6,773 nucleotides of DNA from a virus (taxonomy: Duplodnaviria; Heunggongvirae; Uroviricota; Caudoviricetes). The number at the start of each line of letters is the position of its first letter. Positions within the stretch are counted from its first letter, which is position 1. The notes below the pieces were generated by a model. The model saw only the letters and a program-made list of their open reading frames with translations, was not told the DNA's origin and did no database searches. The DNA is taken from positions 1 to 6,773 of the IMG/VR virus record IMGVR_UViG_2778261086_000001. One strand, 5' to 3'. Positions 1-6,773 of this stretch are shown one piece after another. Position numbers and translations under genes: made by a program.

Positions 1-117
1 ATTATATCGAATGTGATTACAATCGGTGGCGGCGGCACAGTTGGTGTGGCGGCCTCAGTCCGGAACAATTTGAAAACCAGAACCTCGCTTAGGCCTGTGT
101 CCATATTACGTGGGTAG

Positions 118-856: not shown

Positions 857-1007
857 GGTGTTCTGGTTTGTTACAAATTTATCTGAAGCAGTCATTGTTA
901 TAATTTTATTATTTGTACCTCTTGAGATTTCCTTGTTGGTTTTTCTCTCTGATATTTTTTTTCGGACCATTCTGCCCAAGGGCTAATTTCTTCAAAAGGT
1001 AATAATT

Positions 1008-1220
1008 ATGTCTAACAAAATGACTGGTTTAGTGAAATGGTTTAACCCTGAAAAAGGTTTTGGTTTCATCACGCCGAAAGATGGCAGCAAAGATGTGTTT
1101 GTCCATTTCTCAGCAATTCAGAGCAACGATTTCAAAACATTAACTGAGAATCAGGAAGTTGAATTTGGTATTGAGAACGGACCTAAAGGTCCTGCCGCTG
1201 TTCATGTAGTGGCGCTTTGA
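1008..1220 (+). CDS. cspI: Cold-shock protein, CspA family (CspI-like)
   Basis: 70-aa [41 protein letters not shown]... with the RNP1 (KGFGFI) and RNP2 (VFVHF) motifs of the cold-shock domain. The AAAGGTAATA Shine-Dalgarno context resembles cspA. Sequence matches my recollection of K-12 Qin CspI. Confidence 0.9.
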
Positions 1221-1242
1221 GGTAGACAATATTACAAACCAT

Positions 1243-1419
1243 ATTCACTTTAGATGCCCGTGTTGTCATGGTTCCCAGTATAGAACATCATCTTTTGATG
1301 TTTCTGACATGAATCCTTTCGGGGCAAAATGTATCTTTTGTAAATCAATGATGATTACATTTGATAATATTTCACAATACTTAAATGCCAGCCGTCTGTC
1401 GTTGGATTTAAAAAAGTGA
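1243..1419 (+). CDS. Putative zinc-ribbon small protein (CPCC...CIFC); start codon uncertain, no in-frame ATG/GTG/TTG upstream of the first Cys pair
   Basis: Open frame from 1210 to TGA 1417-1419 encoding ...HFRCPCCHGSQYRTSSFDVSDMNPFGAKCIFCKSMMITFDNISQYLNASRLSLDLKK. Two Cys pairs about 22 residues apart suggest a zinc ribbon. The only in-frame ATG (1309) lies after the first Cys pair; ATT at 1243 is used here as a nominal start. An intrinsic terminator follows immediately. Could be a start-codon-mutated pseudogene. Confidence 0.3.
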   Translation: MHFRCPCCHGSQYRTSSFDVSDMNPFGAKCIFCKSMMITFDNISQYLNASRLSLDLKK

Positions 1420-1846: not shown

Positions 1847-1893
1847 GACTTACTGTGTAACTGGAAAGTCATAACAGACTAAAAGAGGAAATG

Positions 1894-2067
1894 ATGAATA
1901 TTGAAAACTTAAAAACAAAAGCAGAAGCAGATATTTCTGAATATATAACAAAAAAAATTATTGAACTTAAGAAAAAGACCGGGAAAGAAGTTACCAGTAT
2001 TCAGTTTACCGCACGGGAAAAAATGACGGGTCTTGAAAGCTATGATGTCAAGATTAATTTAATCTGA
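1894..2067 (+). CDS. gnsB: GnsB (GnsA/GnsB family small protein, Qin prophage)
   Basis: 57-aa ORF MNIENLKTKAEADISEYITKKIIELKKKTGKEVTSIQFTAREKMTGLESYDVKINLI with AAGAGG Shine-Dalgarno 5 nt upstream. Matches my recollection of GnsB and closely resembles GnsA. Confidence 0.85.
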   Translation: MNIENLKTKAEADISEYITKKIIELKKKTGKEVTSIQFTAREKMTGLESYDVKINLI

Positions 2068-2093
2068 TGTATTCAATAATAAAATTTATCCAT

Positions 2094-2125
2094 AAACCTC
2101 GTTTTTACGGGGTTTTGTTATATTT
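2094..2125 (+). terminator. Putative intrinsic terminator downstream of gnsB
   Basis: Hairpin AAACCTCG / CGGGGTTT (2094-2101 and 2108-2115) with a 6-nt loop, followed by a T-rich stretch (TGTTATATTT). Confidence 0.4.
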
Positions 2126-2181
2126 GAATGGTTCCGAATATCTAAATCACAATTGTTGATGGTTTTTATTAAACCAATGCA

Positions 2182-2210
2182 GTCCGGCTCAGGAGTGAGA
2201 GAAGCCGGAC
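2182..2210 (-). terminator. Putative intrinsic terminator of the minus-strand ynfO-ydfO unit
   Basis: Perfect 8-bp stem GTCCGGCT / AGCCGGAC (2182-2189 and 2203-2210) directly 3' of the ydfO stop on the minus strand, followed on that strand by a U-containing tract (UGCAUUGGUUUAAU). Confidence 0.35.
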
Positions 2211-2218
2211 GTTATGGT

Positions 2219-2629
2219 TTAGCGTGGTAAGATCTGTGTAGTTTTCTGGATGCTTTCAGTAAATAGTAATGAATTATCAAAGGTATAGTAATATCTTTTT
2301 TGTTCGTGGATATTTGTAACCCACCGAAAAACTCCTGCTTTAGCAAGGTTTCTTCTGTATTCCTGAAATGTGATCTCTCTGGATTTCAGCTTATTAGAGG
2401 TCGTTTCTATAAGATGCCTATCCTTTGAAAATTTGACAGACACAATGTTTTTTAGGCCCTTTAATAACACTGTATTATCATTTTTTAATACAATATGAAC
2501 ATTCTCTGTGGCTAAATAGTAAATGTAATGTGAGACATTGTGACGTTTTAGCTCAGAATAAAACCATTGATAGTTTAAATCGTTTCGAACTTTATCAAAT
2601 ATTTGTTTAAAAATGACTACCTGATCCAT
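2219..2629 (-). CDS. ydfO: DUF1398-family protein (YdfO/YbcV-like prophage protein)
   Basis: Minus-strand [34 protein letters not shown]...QKTTQILPR (136 aa from ATG 2629; the track's extended start at 2644 gives 141 aa). Neither start has a strong Shine-Dalgarno. Matches my recollection of K-12 Qin YdfO; lies in the Rz-cos interval as YbcV does in DLP12. Confidence 0.75.
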
Positions 2630-2686
2630 AGATAAACCGTCCATGTGATATGAGGGGGCGTAGTCTGCACGATTATCTAAATTGCT

Positions 2687-2920
2687 TCAATCTGGTCTGA
2701 CCTGTTTTCTGAGCAATTCAGTAATGTCACTCTTTTCTTTGTTTGCTTCAGAAGAAACTCTTTTTTCTGAGCACAGTCTCCGGCGGCAGGCTTCAATGAC
2801 CCAGGCTGAGAAATTCCCGGACCCTTTTTGCTCAAGAGCGATGTTAATTTGTTCAATCATTTGGTTAGGAAAGCGGATGTTGCGGGTTGTTGTTCTGCGG
2901 GTTCTGTTCTTCGTTGACAT
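2687..2920 (-). CDS. ynfO: Small ribbon-helix-helix-like protein (YnfO/YlcI-like), directly upstream of ydfO on the same strand
   Basis: 77-aa minus-strand ORF MSTKNRTRRTTTRNIRFPNQMIEQINIALEQKGSGNFSAWVIEACRRRL... The pattern of a basic N-terminus, a short strand (RNIRFP), helix, Gly turn and second helix is RHH-like. The antisense + ORF 2682..2948 was rejected. The lambda right end just before cos carries a similar small minus-strand ORF, as far as I recall. Confidence 0.65.
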   Translation of the reverse strand: MSTKNRTRRTTTRNIRFPNQMIEQINIALEQKGSGNFSAWVIEACRRRLCSEKRVSSEANKEKSDITELLRKQVRPD

Positions 2921-3094
2921 GAGGTTGCCCCGTATTCAGTGTCGCTGATTTGTATTGTCTGAAGTTGTTTTTACGTTAAGTTGATGCAGATCAATTAATA
3001 CGATACCTGCGTCATAATTGATTATTTGACGTGGTTTGATGGCCTCCACGCACGTTGTGATATGTAGATGATAATCATTATCACTTTACGGGTC

Positions 3095-3295
3095 CTTTCC
3101 GGTGATCCGACAGGTTACGGGGCGGCGACCTCGCGGGTTTTCGCTATTTATGAAAATTTTCCGGTTTAAGGCGTTTCCGTTCTTCTTCGTCGTAACTTAA
3201 TGTTTTTATTTAAAATACCCCCTAAAAAGAAAGGAAACGACAGGTGCTGAAAACGAACTTTTGGGCCTCTGTCGTTTCCTTTCTCTGTTTTTGGC
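3095..3295. other. Lambdoid cos site: cosQ, cosN (12-nt cohesive end GGGCGGCGACCT at 3120-3131) and cosB with terminase R sites
   Basis: 3090-3119 reads ...GGGTCCTTTCCGGTGATCCGACAGGTTACG (the lambda right end) followed at 3120 by GGGCGGCGACCTCGCGGGTTTTCGCTATTTATGAAAATTTTCCGGTTTAAGGCGTTTCCGTTCTTCTTCG..., which is near-identical to the first ~190 nt of the lambda genome as I remember it, and leads into the Nu1 homolog. Confidence 0.9.
3229..3283. repeat. Perfect 15-bp inverted repeat GAAAGGAAACGACAG / CTGTCGTTTCCTTTC (lambda cosB R2/R1 terminase small-subunit binding sites)
   Basis: 3229-3243 and 3269-3283 are exact reverse complements. A third copy of the CGTTTCC core (R3) lies at about 3172-3183. 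Confidence 0.7.
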
Positions 3296-3308
3296 CGTGG
3301 AATGAACA

Positions 3309-3830
3309 ATGGAAGTCAACAAAAAGCAGCTGGCTGACATTTTCGGTGCGAGTATCCGTACCATTCAGAACTGGCAGGAACAGGGAATGCCCGTTCTGCG
3401 AGGCGGTGGCAAGGGTAATGAGGTGCTTTATGACTCTGCCGCCGTTATAAGATGGTATGCCGAAAGGGATGCTGAAATTGAGAACGAAAAGCTGCGCCGG
3501 GAAGTTGAAGAACTGCGGCGGGCCAGCGAGACAGATCTCCAGCCAGGGACTATTGAGTACGAACGCCATCGACTTACGCGTGCGCAGGCCGACGCACAGG
3601 AGCTGAAAAATGCCAGAGACTCCGCTGAAGTGGTGGAAACCGCATTCTGTACTTTCGTGCTGTCGCGGATCGCAGGTGAAATTGCCAGTATTCTCGACGG
3701 GATCCCCCTGTCGGTGCAGCGGCGTTTTCCGGAACTGGAAAACCGACATGTTGATTTCCTGAAACGGGATATCATCAAAGCCATGAACAAAGCAGCCGCG
3801 CTGGATGAACTGATACAGCATGGACGTTGA
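3309..3830 (+). CDS. nohA: Terminase small subunit Nu1 homolog, C-terminally truncated (NohA/NohQ-like)
   Basis: 173-aa [72 protein letters not shown]... that follows lambda Nu1 (181 aa) closely through residue ~168 and then ends ...ELIQHGR instead of ELIPGLLSEYIEQSG. No terminase large subunit gene follows. Confidence 0.9.
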
Positions 3831-6696
3831 GTACGGTCAGTACAGCGTTATTCTGTTGGTGGAGGGATTCCCGCCGTCACATGCCGGGACCATCACCGTG
3901 TATGAAGATTCTCAACCCGGTACGCTGAATGATTTTCTCGGTGCCATGACGGAGGATGATGCCCGTCCGGAGGCACTGCGTCGTTTTGAACTGATGGTGG
4001 AAGAGGTGGCGCGTAACGCGTCCGTGGTGGCACAGAACACGGCAGCCGCAAAGAAGTCAGCCAGTGATGCCAGCACATCTGCCAGTGAGGCGGCAACCCG
4101 TGCGACTGATGCTGCAGATTCAGCACGTGCAGCCAGCACGTCAGCCGGACAGGCCGCGTCGTCGGCTCAGTCAGCGTCTTCCAGCGCAGGAACGGCATCA
4201 ACAAAGGCCACTGAAGCCTCAAAAAGTGCTGCCGCTGCAGAGTCCTCAAAAAGCGCGGCGGCTACCAGTGCCGGTGCGGCGAAAACGTCAGAAACGAATG
4301 CGGCAGCGTCAGAACAATCAGCCGCCACTTCTGCATCCACCGCGACCACGAAAGCGTCAGAAGCTGCCACCTCAGCCAGGGATGCGTCGGCTTCAAAAGA
4401 GGCGGCAAAATCATCAGAAACGAGCGCAGCCTCGAGCGCCAGTCGTGCAGCCTCCTCGGCAACAGCGGCAGGAACTTCCGCGAAGGCGGCAAAAACGTCC
4501 GAGACGAACGCAAAGTCTTCTGAGACGGCAGCGGGACAGAGTGCCTCCGCAGCAGCAGACTCAAAAACAGCGGCTGCCTCATCTGCCAGCGCCGCGTCAA
4601 CAAATGCCGGGCAGGCCTCAGCCAGTGCCACCGCTGCCGGAAAGTCGGCAGAAAGCGCCGCATCATCCGCTTCAACAGCCACAACGAAGGCTGGCGAAGC
4701 CACTGAACAGGCCACGGTAGCAGCGAGGTCAGCTTCCGCAGCGAAGACATCCGAAACGAACGCGAAAGCGTCGGAAACCAGCGCAGAATCCTCAAAAACG
4801 GCTGCCGCATCGTCAGCCAGTTCGGCGGCGTCATCGGCATCATCGGCGTCTGCTTCAAAAGATGAGGCGACCAGACAGGCGTCAGCAGCGAAGGGCAGCG
4901 CCACGACGGCATCCACGAAGGCGACAGAGGCAGCTGGCAGTGCGACGGCGGCAGCTCAGAGCAAAAGTACGGCGGAATCCGCGGCAACGCGCGCCGAGAC
5001 AGCAGCAAAACGGGCAGAGGATATTGCATCCGCCGTGGCGCTTGAGGATGCGAGCACGACGAAAAAGGGGATAGTACAGCTCAGCAGTGCGACCAACAGT
5101 ACGTCTGAAACGCTGGCGGCAACGCCAAAGGCAGTAAAATCAGCCTATGACAATGCAGAGAAACGTCTGCAGAAAGACCAGAACGGCACTGATATACCCG
5201 ATAAGGGACGCTTCCTGAACAACATTAACGCGGTCAGTAAAATAGACTTTGCTGATAAGCGTGGTATGCGTTATGTGCGGGTTAACGCTCCTGCAGGTGC
5301 AACATCTGGAAAATATTACCCTGTTGTTGTTATGCGTTCTGCTGGCTCAGTAAGCGAACTGGCATCAAGGGTCATTATCACCACGGCAACGCGAACCGCA
5401 GGCGATCCGATGAATAACTGCGAGTTTAACGGATTTGTTATGCCTGGTGGCTGGACTGACAGGGGGCGTTATGCTTATGGAATGTTCTGGCAATATCAAA
5501 ACAATGAACGAGCCATCCACTCAATAATGATGAGTAATAAGGGCGATGATTTGCGCTCTGTGTTCTATGTTGATGGCGCTGCTTTCCCTGTTTTTGCGTT
5601 TATCGAAGATGGCCTGTCAATATCCGCACCTGGTGCTGATCTCGTTGTTAATGATACGACCTATAAGTTTGGGGCAACAAATCCAGCGACTGAATGTATC
5701 GCGGCGGACGTTATCCTTGATTTTAAGAGTGGGCGTGGTTTTTATGAGTCTCATTCGTTAATCGTTAACGATAATTTGTCGTGCAAAAAACTTTTTGCCA
5801 CAGACGAAATTGTAGCGCGTGGTGGTAATCAGATTCGAATGATAGGTGGGGAGTATGGTGCATTATGGCGTAATGATGGCGCTAAAACTTACCTGCTGCT
5901 TACCAATCAAGGTGATGTTTATGGTGGCTGGAATACATTAAGACCGTTTGCTATTGATAACGCAACCGGCGAACTGGTTATTGGAACCAAACTGTCCGCA
6001 AGTCTGAACGGTAATGCATTAACAGCAACAAAGCTGCAAACGCCAAGACTGGTTTCTGGTGTTGAGTTTGATGGTTCCAGAGATATTACTTTAACCGCCG
6101 CGCATGTGGCTGCTTTTGCCAGAAGGGCAACGGATACATATGCCGATGCGGATGGTGGCGTTCCCTGGAATGCCGAATCAGGTGCTTACAATGTCACCCG
6201 CTCTGGCGACAGCTATATTCTGGTTAACTTCTATACCGGAGTCGGAAGTTGCCGGACCTTGCAGATGAAGGCGCATTACAGAAATGGTGGTCTGTTCTAC
6301 CGTTCTTCAAGAGACGGTTATGGTTTTGAGGATGACTGGGCAGAAGTTTATACCTCGAAAAATCTTCCACCAGAAAGCTACCCAGTCGGCGCACCAATCC
6401 CGTGGCCATCAGATACCGTTCCGTCTGGCTATGCCCTGATGCAGGGGCAGACTTTTGACAAATCTGCATACCCGAAACTTGCAGTGGCTTATCCGTCAGG
6501 CGTTATTCCTGATATGCGTGGCTGGACGATTAAGGGCAAGCCCGCCAGTGGTCGTGCCGTATTGTCTCAGGAACAGGACGGCATTAAATCGCACACCCAC
6601 AGCGCCAGCGCATCCAGTACGGATTTGGGGACGAAAACCACATCATCGTTTGATTACGGCACTAAATCCACGAATAACACTGGTGCACATACCCAT
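3820..6696 (+). pseudogene. stf: Side tail fibre gene (lambda Stf / StfQ/StfR family), missing ~50 N-terminal codons through the deletion that fused it to nohA, and cut at the 3' end by IS2
   Basis: Hand translation from ATG 3820 (11 nt overlap with the nohA stop) gives [72 protein letters not shown]..., which aligns with lambda Stf from residue ~51. A long Ala/Ser/Thr-rich repeat shaft follows, then a beta-rich domain (...[21 protein letters not shown]...), then a lambda-like C-terminal region (...[74 protein letters not shown]...TNNTGAHTH). The frame has no stop to the window end but is replaced by IS2 sequence at 6697. Confidence 0.8.
4040..5010 (+). repeat. Degenerate tandem repeats encoding the Ala/Ser/Thr-rich tail-fibre shaft (recurring AAKTSETNA...SASTATTKA units)
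   Basis: Recurrent DNA motifs such as GCGGCAAAAACGTCNGAGACGAANGC at about 4270, 4490 and 4745. High GC and strong codon periodicity generate the long spurious ORFs in other frames and on the opposite strand (4064..4720 +, 4167..4916 -, 4262..5029 -). Confidence 0.5.
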
Positions 6697-6773
6697 TGGA
6701 TTTGCCCCTATATTTCCAGACACCTGTTATCACTTAACCCATTACTGGCCTGCTGCCGCAGATATTCCCGTGG
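6697..6773 (-). mobile_element. IS2 insertion sequence, right inverted repeat and 3' end of orfB (partial; continues beyond the window)
   Basis: TGGATTTGCCCCTATATTTCCAGACACCTGTTATCACTTAACCCATTAC...CCGCAGATATTCCCGTGG matches my recollection of the IS2 terminal inverted repeat and adjoining insD 3' end. It begins abruptly inside the tail-fibre frame. Confidence 0.85.
6708..6773 (-). CDS. insD: IS2 transposase OrfB (InsD), C-terminal 21 codons only (partial at the window edge)
   Basis: Minus-strand translation of 6773..6708 gives ...[21 protein letters not shown] followed by a stop (TAG, complement of 6708-6710), consistent with an IS2 transposase reading into the terminal repeat. Confidence 0.65.

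Follow-up and report, generated by a model that had tools for sequence, protein, structure and literature searches.

The ynfO and ydfO genes, neighbours in the 6,773-nucleotide stretch of viral DNA analysed here (the window), very probably do not form a toxin-antitoxin or any other obligate two-gene module. With moderate confidence, they are interpreted as two independent accessory genes of a Qin-type lambdoid prophage, located in its variable Rz-to-cos region and oriented against late transcription; ynfO would be a regulator and ydfO a self-contained cargo gene. Both were previously annotated and belong to the 'y-ome' of E. coli K-12, and both have homologues in lambda, whose genome is among the best studied. 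The analysis distinguishes a conserved regulator-like DUF3950 gene from an exchangeable cargo gene with a PdhR-linked promoter element. Rejecting a toxin-antitoxin pair also spares the spread of a wrong annotation; the adjoining gnsB is already labelled 'addiction module toxin'.

Locus and gene identities

The window comes from a defective lambda-like E. coli prophage of the Qin type, in which ynfO and ydfO are both located on the minus strand between gnsB and cosN. The genes and landmarks of this region are the following:

2219-2629, minus strand: ydfO coding sequence, 136 aa, DUF1398 (Pfam PF07166, PDB 2HH8, RefSeq start)
2687-2920, minus strand: ynfO coding sequence, 77 aa, YlcI/YnfO family, DUF3950 (Pfam PF13132, NCBIfam NF041551, RefSeq in identical genomes, dN/dS)
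2771-2920, minus strand: conserved ynfO core, codons 1-50, putative ribbon-helix-helix (RHH) DNA-binding domain (alignments, AF2, DNA identity with the lambda right end)
2687-2770, minus strand: hypervariable C-terminal tail of ynfO, codons 51-77 (differs between lineages past residue ~50)
3120-3131, plus strand: cosN cohesive-end sequence, exact match to GGGCGGCGACCT, 200 bp from the ynfO start
3309-3830: nohA/Nu1, on the other side of cosN from ynfO

YnfO belongs to the YlcI/YnfO family above the curated cut-offs, with 75.6 bits against PF13132 (cut-off 25, E=2.7e-21) and 36.6 bits against NF041551 (YlcI_YnfO_N, cut-off 30). YdfO is a full-length DUF1398 member (YdfO/YbcV/YcgX), scoring 157.5 bits against PF07166 (cut-off 22, E=1.7e-46) over profile positions 1-119 of 119, and it shares 98% identity with PDB 2HH8, 'ydfO' (E=4.7e-90). 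An alternative upstream ATG at 2644 would give a YdfO of 141 aa instead of the 136 aa counted from the RefSeq start; in lambda-type homologues, a GGAAGG Shine-Dalgarno sequence precedes the second ATG. Both genes are under purifying selection, more than chance ORFs (dN/dS 0.02-0.18), with values of 0.02-0.15 for the first 50 ynfO codons against the homologues of 434 and Stx phages, and 0.18 for ydfO against lambda.

The initial annotation had described a 77-aa ynfO-like protein and a 136-aa ydfO-like DUF1398 protein on the minus strand, 57 nt apart, beside cos and between Rz and cos, where lambdoid phages carry variable cargo. All of this is correct: the ORF list gives the same 57-nt gap, with ynfO upstream; the family matches agree with RefSeq, where E. 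coli chromosomes of 100% identity have the same two genes under the names ynfO and ydfO; and the positions of cosN and nohA/Nu1 place the genes beside cos. The last base of the lambda record is the base just before the cosN sequence.

Arrangement and co-occurrence of the two genes

In lambda, the YdfO homologue (lambdap78) is encoded at 47045-47452 and the YnfO homologue is a 64-aa ORF at 48109-48303 that is unannotated in RefSeq. Some 690 bp separate the two, and lambdap79 lies in this interval on the other strand. In DLP12, ylcI and ybcV are likewise about 690 bp apart and separated by ybcW, also on the other strand. Strand, order and location between Rz/bor and cos are alike in lambda, DLP12 and Qin. 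YdfO shares 79% identity with lambdap78 and the YnfO core 98% with its lambda counterpart, and from the ynfO core to cosN Qin and lambda do not differ at any of the 345 bp. Unlike in lambda and DLP12, the late-strand lambdap79/ybcW segment is absent here. The similar ylcI/ybcV pair that had been placed in this region of DLP12 is indeed there, but its genes are not adjacent, given the divergent gene in between. The adjacency of ynfO and ydfO in the window is best attributed to the lack of the gene found between them in lambda, and not to a partnership. Regarding ylcI, the 'mutations' reported in evolution experiments are uninformative and, in our inference, probably reflect mis-mapping between paralogues.

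A 2026 preprint describes lambda escaping the Vulcan NADase defence by swapping the lambdap79-containing segment for Qin DNA, an exchange that would lead to the arrangement seen here.

The ynfO core matches 9861 places in complete E. coli genomes; at least 80% of the Qin-type junction is present in 2172 genomes. In 79 of 80 Qin-type IMG/VR contigs the two genes remain neighbours, DUF1398 lying some 60 nt behind the 77-aa YnfO, and this is so for both of two diverged YdfO alleles. Behind YnfO at least 96% identical, YdfO alleles of ~100% and ~76% identity alternate. Among 50,697 phage records searched by tblastn, YnfO was found in 155 and YdfO in 43, so that DUF3950 is about 3.6 times commoner than DUF1398. 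In phage 434 the order is cos, DUF3950, bor, and in YYZ-2008 and JLK-2012 it is HNH/TerS, DUF3950 and then Ant, TonB-like or KilA-N cargo. With DUF3950 also present without DUF1398 in Stx phages and satellites, no conserved, co-inherited pair was found across these genomes.

A 7-sequence DUF1398 alignment led to 31 distant loci (30-49% identity) in Escherichia/Shigella (ycgX), Citrobacter, Klebsiella, Kluyvera, Raoultella, Pseudocitrobacter and Salmonella, none of which has a YnfO homologue within 5 kb. The neighbours of these DUF1398 genes are unrelated to one another and the genes stand alone, in seven genera. The module idea, for which a neighbourhood survey had been suggested, is not supported: outside nearly identical lambdoid DNA the families do not co-occur, DUF3950 precedes bor or other cargo elsewhere, and distant DUF1398 genes are found alone.

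These data bear directly on the idea that the two genes are a type II toxin-antitoxin system, in which the C-terminal tail of an RHH antitoxin, YnfO, would neutralise a YdfO toxin, and YnfO would also autoregulate the operon. This idea had been drawn from a small RHH-like gene preceding a larger partner on the same strand, and the order and the short spacer (57 nt, with no terminator between the genes) are those of operons with RHH antitoxins such as ParDE, RelBE and CcdAB. The near-constant adjacency in Qin-type contigs and the appearance of the ParD2 antitoxin among the non-significant structural neighbours of YnfO also point that way. Nevertheless, it is hardly credible. Unlike in ParDE, RelBE and CcdAB, neither the partnership nor an antitoxin C-terminal domain is conserved, and YdfO falls in no known toxin family. 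The pair does not co-occur beyond near-identical DNA, a divergent gene separates the two in lambda and DLP12, and DUF1398 genes are otherwise solitary. No conserved toxin-neutralising domain was found beside the putative DNA-binding domain of YnfO, and the tail that should bind the toxin is hypervariable and ends within the ydfO promoter element. PADLOC gave no match for ynfO, ydfO, gnsB or ynfN.

Indirect evidence from published work points the same way. YdfO could be over-produced for NMR, 2HH8 being the solution structure of a small soluble protein made in quantity, and lambdap78 is non-essential, its CRISPRi knock-down having no effect on plating. In the portion of the TraDIS report available, higA, hipB and relB are listed as essential antitoxins, and it is ydfO, not ynfO, that is among the insertion-poor genes, which is the opposite of the pattern for real antitoxins. 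The 'essential' status of ydfO stems solely from TraDIS and is probably an artefact of an AT-rich or paralogous target, according to our own inference.

YnfO, a putative ribbon-helix-helix regulator

The conservation of YnfO is limited to its first 50 residues, which comprise a basic N-terminus, an IRFP strand, a helix (19-32), a GSGNFS turn and a second helix (34-50). Residues R16, F17, P18, N36, F37, S38, W40, V41 and C45 are invariant in the alignments, and phage and satellite clades alike retain the IRFP...NFSxWVxxAC core, with indels in the loop. Past residue ~50 the sequence is entirely different from lineage to lineage, and the homologues vary in length from 48 to 134 aa among the matches. 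In Qin, the ynfO frame has a 27-residue tail different from that of lambda, which runs into the ydfO promoter region: the last six codons and the stop fall within the conserved element upstream of ydfO, and GGTCAGACCAGATTGAA marks the point where homology to the lambda p78 upstream region resumes. The charged C-terminal tail that had been noticed does exist, but as a toxin-binding part it fails, since it is hypervariable and its last codons and stop are borrowed from the ydfO promoter region. The tail is arbitrary.

An RHH-like N-terminus had also been proposed, with structure prediction as the check. The AF2 monomer places helices at 19-32 and 34-50(+), where the RHH fold needs them, with a pLDDT of ~85 for residues 20-50; as would be expected of a monomer, residues 12-18 have an extended form but no strand. 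Arc aligns with YnfO in register and N-x-R-[WF]-P is matched; hhalign gave P=0.0088 and a probability of 4.6% for Arc in the correct register, and P=0.41 for Mnt. The Foldseek top ten ranks in PDB are mostly of RHH type (TCP domain, ParD2 antitoxin), all with E values of at least 2.6; no match with E<0.7 was obtained against PDB or BFVD, and none in BFVD was significant. No RHH family appeared in a Pfam search at E up to 10, nor any RHH match in a profile search against PDB. Since no search reached significance, the RHH fold fits the helices and the register without being established. The conserved core is most likely a dimeric DNA-binding domain of this fold and of Arc/Mnt type, judging from the model and the alignment.

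YnfO is thus probably a small DNA-binding regulator resembling Arc and Mnt of the phage P22 immI region. These proteins share with it a small size, a basic N-terminus and the succession of a strand N-[ILF]-R-[FWM]-P, a helix, a G-x-x turn bearing N/S and a second helix. Like mnt, ynfO faces against the surrounding late operon, and its satellite homologues adjoin antirepressor-like genes (AntA, Bro-N, ORF6N, pRha). On the other hand, no significant sequence or fold match was obtained, and unlike in P22 immI there is no ant gene near ynfO in Qin or lambda, its operators and DNA binding being putative.

DUF3950 genes in PICI-like satellites

A sister clade of DUF3950 genes was found in PICI-like satellites, without DUF1398. 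There, DUF3950 is the only gene on the opposite strand, divergent from a consensus promoter of the primase operon (TTGACG-17-TATAGT or TTGACG-18-TATGTT) that is flanked by three lineage-specific repeats; those of the Klebsiella satellite read GGTGxACCCxCAC. In satellite L153 a terminator-like hairpin directly follows the DUF3950 gene, which therefore looks monocistronic.

It is tentatively possible that DUF3950 is an unrecognised Arc/Mnt-like repressor family of lambdoid phages and PICI-like satellites. In satellites it could act as a switch on the three repeats that bracket the primase/replication promoter, near antirepressor-like genes; in lambda, whose copy of the gene lies 200 bp from cos, and in its relatives it could control either leftward transcription of the cargo region, of lysogen type, or rightward transcription across cos, with CACGTCAA, conserved across six lineages, as part of a shared control region and ydfO as one interchangeable cargo. 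If true, this would fill a gap in how PICI-like satellites stay silent.

The position of DUF3950 raises another question, that is, whether YnfO binds DNA close to cos, on its cosQ side, so as to influence packaging, the cleavage of cos or transcription across it. DUF3950 lies within 200-400 bp of cos or terminase genes under two packaging systems, Nu1/A (lambda, 434, Qin) and HNH+TerS+TerL (YYZ-2008, JLK-2012), and such a role would account for its always adjoining the packaging module; the complete identity between Qin and lambda from the ynfO core to cosN fits as well. Nevertheless, a packaging role is very unlikely. The satellite homologue is in a regulatory/replication module away from packaging genes, and ynfO faces against late transcription, which is the pattern of a moron and not of a late gene. 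Moreover, a cos segment of ~200 bp suffices for lambda packaging, and terminase is the only phage protein needed, assisted by host IHF and gpFI.

Candidate control sequences

Four candidate control features were located around the two genes:

2990-3033, minus strand: candidate operator region upstream of ynfO (inverted repeat and motif)
2694-2702, minus strand: palindrome GGTCAGACC, the core of the published PdhR gSELEX box AAcaGGTcagACCAgaT (2690-2706), unique in the window
2662-2690, minus strand: candidate ydfO promoter, TTGAAG (2685-2690), 17-nt spacer, CAGACT (2662-2667), a conserved element with a putative promoter function
2182-2210, minus strand: stem-loop just past the ydfO stop, with a 9-bp stem, an 11-nt loop and no U-tract (RNA fold)

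A sigma-70 scan of 1850-3320 found no consensus promoter against 4.4 expected, and upstream of ynfO the best matches scored 8/12, so the promoter that had been placed there was not recovered. The region upstream of ynfO does contain an inverted repeat (2990-3002/3010-3022) with 13-nt arms, 85% complementary, and the motif CACGTCAA at 3026-3033 on the minus strand, common to satellite DUF3950 genes. In 86 kb of loci from six lineages, this motif was found only 54-113 nt upstream of DUF3950 starts. ynfO, the constant cos-proximal gene, would encode a small regulator of transcription that most likely acts as a repressor or autoregulator, and its likely target would be the ~200 bp between the ynfO start and cosN, where the inverted repeat at 2990-3022 and CACGTCAA form a candidate site.

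The candidate ydfO promoter is weak (7/12), and the ynfO stop TGA (2687-2689) is inside its -35-like TTGAAG. Nevertheless, neither the element GATTGAA-17 nt-TGCAnACTA nor its spacing varies in front of ydfO in Qin, p78 in lambda and four paralogues of the ycgX type with only 44-49% protein identity. ydfO has its own conserved promoter-like element, which travels with DUF1398 genes including the chromosomal ycgX and may be active as a promoter. YcgX, encoded beside bluR in E. coli, is a DUF1398 protein of 44% identity preceded by the same element (TTGAAG-17-CAnACT); it differs in being chromosomal, with neither a DUF3950 gene nor cos, and in its degenerate PdhR-type palindrome (GGACAGACC).

The PdhR-type palindrome is conserved in lambda and DLP12 and inexact upstream of distant DUF1398 genes, where the conserved part is the adjoining promoter-like element. 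A PdhR box is listed at the ynfO/ydfO locus and a homologous one at ybcV, whose mRNA was 10-fold lower in a pdhR mutant (PMC7660256). By analogy, transcription of ydfO is probably PdhR-dependent, the dependence having been measured only for ybcV.

As for the hairpin terminator described downstream of ydfO, the hairpin is real (-23.9 kcal/mol and z=-3.95 for a 96-nt stretch), but it has no U-tract and was not called as an intrinsic terminator. Nor was a terminator called between ynfO and ydfO, so read-through from ynfO into ydfO may occur, though it would not be required, and co-transcription and regulation of ydfO by YnfO are conceivable.

Such regulation would be the purpose of a dedicated cassette, with YnfO controlling ydfO through operon autoregulation or at the ydfO promoter, and the next cargo, e.g. 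bor, elsewhere. The leftward cargo region always begins, on its cos-proximal side, with DUF3950 and continues with different cargo (ydfO, ybcW/ybcV, bor, others), which would suit a regulator of whatever follows, as would the missing terminator and the repressor-like setting of the satellite homologues at a repeat-flanked divergent promoter. However, this arrangement is unlikely, because ydfO's own promoter-like element is present even where there is no DUF3950 gene and ydfO also brings the PdhR box. In addition, a comparison of the ynfO and ydfO upstream regions found no common sequence, in YYZ-2008 nothing but convergent late genes comes after the DUF3950 gene, and the L153 gene appears monocistronic. 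Independence of the two genes is preferred: in the Qin-type arrangement lacking lambdap79/ybcW, the ynfO frame simply runs into the ydfO promoter region and ends there.

ydfO as a probable cargo gene

Following this preferred reading, ydfO would be a self-contained unit made up of the promoter-like element and the abutting PdhR-type box, the DUF1398 coding sequence and the trailing hairpin. Cargo genes of this type, often termed morons, would be expressed in the lysogen. ydfO has the attributes of a lambdoid moron: a conserved promoter-like element, a trailing hairpin, atypical GC (0.28-0.37 vs 0.42-0.53 in the neighbouring cos/nohA DNA), a non-essential lambda homologue and a patchy presence, with YdfO in 43 phage records against 155 with the neighbouring DUF3950 gene. 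The lambda morons bor and lom, lysogenic-conversion genes embedded in late regions, resemble it: they lie in the Rz-to-cos variable region, are oriented against late transcription, and share with it low GC (~0.3 in ydfO), an own promoter-like element and a hairpin at the end, while being patchily distributed and dispensable for lytic growth. On the other hand, Bor is a lipoprotein with a serum-resistance phenotype, whereas YdfO is soluble and no phenotype is known for it.

Several functions attributed to DUF1398 proteins were considered and discarded. The PHROG 413 label 'head protein' was rejected because lambdap78 is non-essential, YdfO is soluble by NMR and distant members are solitary chromosomal genes; as labels of the lambda homologue, both 'head protein' and 'envelope protein' are unsupported. 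The statement that over-expression of YdfO shields from oxidative stress (PMC4077768) was also rejected, as the source it cites names YfdK, YfdO and YfdS of CPS-53, and ydfO was not found in the accessible part of that source's text. A 233-aa database protein suggested a YnfO-YdfO fusion by programmed TGA read-through, which was rejected as a conserved feature since the 76%-type allele carries an in-frame TAG in the spacer. Concerning the fold, the comparison that started from the YdfO model gave no result and is uninformative because the AF2 model is poor (pLDDT 48). Finally, the ionic-liquid cation [C2mim]+ is reported to induce ydfO strongly, by 12- to 116-fold, an effect that equimolar sodium salts do not have.

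Genomic setting of ynfO and ydfO

The window represents what is left of the late region of a defective, Qin-type lambdoid prophage of E. coli, and its positions 2000-3300 are 100% identical to several complete chromosomes (e.g., strains 1303 and G4/9). The RefSeq annotation, which agrees with the ORF list and the Pfam scan, places rzpQ, cspI, ynfQ/R/N and gnsB in this order on the plus strand, followed by ydfO and ynfO on the minus strand, and then nohA. The coordinates, sizes and 57-nt spacing of the two genes in the initial annotation were correct according to the ORF list and Pfam. The protein of PDB entry 2HH8 is 98% identical to YdfO.

Main features of the window
862-1247, plus strand: cspA thermoregulator (Rfam, 112.8 bits), spanning the cspI leader and coding region
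2219-2629, minus strand: ydfO, 136 aa, DUF1398 (Pfam E=1.7e-46)
2687-2920, minus strand: ynfO, 77 aa, DUF3950 (Pfam E=2.7e-21)
3120-3131: cosN, GGGCGGCGACCT
3309-3830: nohA, Nu1 homologue, 173 aa

The Rfam scan of the window showed nothing besides the cspA thermoregulator, and no tRNAs were found in it. In the best-matching genome, a prophage tail-fibre gene comes directly after nohA (window 3309-3830 and 3830-6773), and E. coli 1303 retains terminase and capsid fragments between them. The head genes are deleted in the window, hence cos is unusable by this prophage alone. A palindrome (GATAATGATTATC, 3070-3082), identical in lambda, lies around 40-50 bp to the left of cosN, and presumably resembles a Fur-box half (GATAATGATAATCATTATC).

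The initial observation is correct in its core. Since ynfO and ydfO have been annotated before and belong to known families without an assigned function, the finding itself is ordinary. What remains of interest is that DUF3950 may be a repressor family common to lambda-like phages and satellites, together with the conserved promoter-like element of the DUF1398 genes.

Coding status and flanking signals

Codon comparisons show that both ORFs are real genes. Codons 1-50 of ynfO, compared with the homologues of phage 434 and two Stx-type phages, showed dS values of 0.15 to >1 and dN values of 0.02-0.11 (dN/dS = 0.02-0.15), and dN/dS was 0.18 for ydfO against its lambda homologue. A second DUF3950 clade, 35-44% identical, retains the invariant residues R16 F17 P18 ... 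N36 F37 S38 x W40 V41 ... C45 despite four residues inserted in the loop, a pattern of conservation at the protein level and not at the DNA level.

The promoter region proposed upstream of ynfO was not recovered: the consensus scan of 1850-3320 detected no sigma-70 promoter on either strand, and a relaxed scan upstream of ynfO reached 8/12 matches at best. The terminator proposed after ydfO held in part, as there is a stable hairpin (2182-2210), but it has no U-tract and was not scored as a terminator.

Comparison with lambda and DLP12

From around 2775 to 3119 the window is identical to the lambda right end at every base. Lambda carries there an intact 64-aa DUF3950 ORF (48109-48303, l-strand, minus, of NC_001416.1; 2710-2904 of locus L002). 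It lies 200 bp short of the right cohesive end and shares 98% identity with YnfO across 54 residues. This ORF lacks annotation in the NC_001416 RefSeq record, and its family is under strong purifying selection. The lambda homologue of YdfO is lambdap78 (79% identity). In lambda the two homologues are around 690 bp apart, and ylcI and ybcV of DLP12 are identically arranged; the gap holds lambdap79 or ybcW, respectively, on the opposite (late) strand. The initial annotation was therefore right about the presence and position of the pair in DLP12, but not about its adjacency.

Homology between Qin and lambda restarts at GGTCAGACCAGATTGAA, which comprises the last six ynfO codons and the stop codon. 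The Qin arrangement is that of lambda minus the lambdap79 segment. According to a 2026 preprint (bioRxiv 10.64898/2026.09.04.749371), lambdap79 triggers the Vulcan NADase defence, and all lambda-vir escapers had lost this gene, "likely through recombination with the Qin prophage". The tight junction of ynfO and ydfO is therefore an allele that can be exchanged in nature and is distinguished by lacking a defence trigger; functional coupling of both genes need not be involved.

Co-occurrence of the two families

If the RHH-like gene and the DUF1398 gene formed a toxin-antitoxin (TA) or regulatory module, as initially proposed, both families should travel together, but co-occurrence fails in both directions. 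Among 50,697 phage records, tblastn detected relatives of YnfO in 155 and of YdfO in 43. Phage 434 has the order cos, DUF3950, bor, Rz, without DUF1398. The Stx-type phages YYZ-2008 and JLK-2012 have a different packaging module (HNH, TerS, TerL), which DUF3950 adjoins; genes of the Ant, TonB-like or KilA-N type come next.

In a whole-library HMMER search DUF1398 proved to be a small family, with 200 clusters at 50% identity, many of them fragments. Scanning one genome per species gave 67 loci. Those at 75-100% identity are lambdoid DNA, those at around 79% in non-enteric taxa being nearly all lambda contamination, and one more locus carries a Qin-type copy in degraded form. At 30-49% identity there are 31 loci (Escherichia/Shigella ycgX, Citrobacter, Klebsiella, Kluyvera, Raoultella, Pseudocitrobacter and Salmonella diarizonae), which have no YnfO match within 5 kb and share no small co-directional upstream ORF; their neighbours are mutually unrelated (CSD protein, DinI, BhsA-like, SopE, LuxR-type, phosphatase). 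In two Kluyvera loci a conserved 74-aa ORF (MLEGYFDLDGATG...; L058 4504-4728 and L072 4532-4756, both minus strand) that matches no Pfam family is found upstream of the DUF1398 gene, in divergent orientation to it; the DUF1398 gene is followed by a CSD protein or a DinI-like protein.

Within E. coli, the ynfO core gave 9,861 matches in 5,426 complete genomes, up to 12 per genome, and the Qin-type junction was covered at >=80% in 2,172 of them. Adjacency is stable within the Qin type (79/80 IMG/VR contigs). Behind a YnfO that stays >=96% identical, however, YdfO alleles of around 100% and 76% identity alternate, so a mosaic boundary lies between the genes.

Further, indirect data also weigh against a TA pair, a reading that we regard as very improbable; the broader idea of a two-gene module is likewise unsupported. 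The supposed neutralising tail of YnfO is not conserved, neither protein matches a PADLOC model, CRISPRi knock-down of lambdap78 had no effect on lambda plating (PMC10695390), and YdfO was produced for NMR. Moreover, in a TraDIS essential-gene study the known antitoxins higA, hipB and relB are listed among the essential genes, and it is ydfO, not ynfO, that is listed as insertion-poor (PMC5821084).

Regarding gnsB (1891-2067, plus strand), it is convergent with ydfO at around 150 nt, matches the Pfam family GnsAB_toxin (E=3.3e-35), is named "addiction module toxin" in RefSeq and is followed by a terminator-like hairpin (2094-2115, plus strand). It is the toxin-like gene of this neighbourhood, if there is one at all.

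Lambda DNA is present in around 30 "genomes" from unrelated taxa (L011-L033, L037, L041, L043-L045 and L050), including Pseudomonas, Kitasatospora, Flavobacterium, Bradyrhizobium, Cohnella and Nanosynbacter MAGs, many in contigs of around 3.5 kb spanning the lambda right end. This would be contamination, probably from sequencing control DNA, and the same source explains many noisy 3.5-kb ENA contigs in the protein searches.

ydfO as a self-contained unit

The upstream regions (around 100 nt) of Qin ydfO, the 76% allele, lambdap78 and four chromosomal ycgX-type paralogues, whose proteins are 44-49% identical and which have no ynfO nearby, were aligned. Two invariant blocks with fixed spacing appeared, GATTGAA (2686-2692) and TGCAnACTA (2661-2669), which correspond to a -35-like TTGAAG and a -10-like CAGACT separated by 17 nt. 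As this DNA is more conserved than the protein after it, it is best explained as a control element of the DUF1398 gene itself, and we infer that it could be the active ydfO promoter. The ynfO stop codon TGA (2687-2689) falls within the -35-like hexamer.

Immediately upstream of that element is GGTCAGACC (2694-2702), unique in the window and the core of the PdhR box assigned by genomic SELEX here and at ybcV, whose mRNA decreased 10-fold in a pdhR mutant (PMC7660256). Furthermore, ydfO mRNA rose 12- to 116-fold on exposure to the ionic-liquid cation [C2mim]+, with no rise for equimolar sodium salts (PMC4077768), and ydfO is among the four Qin genes responding to DicC induction (PMC11430063). 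The gene is AT-rich (GC 0.28-0.37, against 0.42-0.53 in the neighbouring cos and nohA DNA). The conserved element, the PdhR box, the regulated mRNA and the AT-richness are hallmarks of a moron, a phage accessory cargo gene.

ynfO and its stop codon share the reading frame of ydfO, the spacer (2630-2686) has no further stop, and a 233-aa ynfO-ydfO fusion protein (P0002) is present in the protein collection. A conserved frame relationship was rejected, as the 76%-identity allele has an in-frame TAG in the spacer.

Protection against oxidative stress by YdfO over-expression was also discarded: ydfO (Qin) and yfdO (CPS-53) have been confused in at least two papers, and the phenotype is that of YfdO (PMC4077768, PMC9181523, PMC3105296). 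Neither "head protein", the name given by PHROG 413 and by RefSeq for lambda, nor "putative envelope protein" is a supported label.

DUF3950 as a possible repressor family

Conservation of YnfO is limited to residues 1-50 (TRNIRFPNQMIEQINIALEQKGSGNFSAWVIEACRRRL), the tail being wholly different between lineages. Arc (PQFNLRWPREVLDLVRKVAEENGRSVNSEIYQRVMESF) and Mnt align with this core in register for strand, helix, turn and helix, including the N-x-R-[WF]-P strand. AF2 predicts helices at 19-32 and 34-50 (pLDDT around 85), with residues 12-18 extended, which is expected of an RHH protein modelled as a monomer. These features make the RHH-like N-terminus of the initial annotation plausible, but no remote-homology search reached significance: RHH-type proteins (TCP domain, ParD2 antitoxin) made up most of the top ten Foldseek PDB hits at E values of 2.6 or worse, hhalign against Arc gave P=0.009 (probability <5%), no Pfam RHH model matched, and a YnfO profile search of PDB returned nothing. 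The RHH fold is a candidate: it is consistent with these data and is the only common DNA-binding fold to suit a 35-40-residue core of one strand plus two helices.

The sister DUF3950 clade is found in PICI-like elements of Klebsiella, Serratia, Yersinia, Dickeya, Pectobacterium, Xenorhabdus, Moellerella and Pasteurella. The order is int, cargo, alpA, an antirepressor-like gene (AntA, Bro-N, ORF6N or pRha), DUF3950, small ORFs, primase and, in some, capsid genes, with DUF3950 as the sole gene on its strand. Its upstream regions (L153 4800-5000; L159, L160, L163 and L164 2300-2500; L005 3800-4000) contain a repeat that occurs three times and is specific to the lineage (GGTGCACCCCCAC in Klebsiella, GTGTTTAAACA in Dickeya and Xenorhabdus, GGTGTGTAGA in Yersinia) and an opposite-facing near-consensus promoter into the primase operon (TTGACG-17-TATAGT or TTGACG-18-TATGTT). 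In L153 a terminator-like hairpin lies directly 3' of the gene. By analogy, this layout is that of a putative small repressor at a divergent promoter.

In L153 a 324-aa ORF was called on the other strand across DUF3950, where L154 has two smaller flanking ORFs; this call appears doubtful. One Dickeya satellite carries KwaA/KwaB (Kiwa defence) cargo beside alpA (L160 3326-4724), two genes from DUF3950.

The satellite -35, read on the DUF3950 strand, is the octamer CACGTCAA. Across 86 kb of these loci this motif, found post hoc, is confined to positions 54-113 nt ahead of DUF3950 start codons, which holds for six lineages, lambda and Qin among them. The consensus promoter scan found no -10 after it in lambda and Qin. 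In Qin it lies at 3026-3033, adjoined by an inverted repeat with 13-nt arms (2990-3002/3010-3022).
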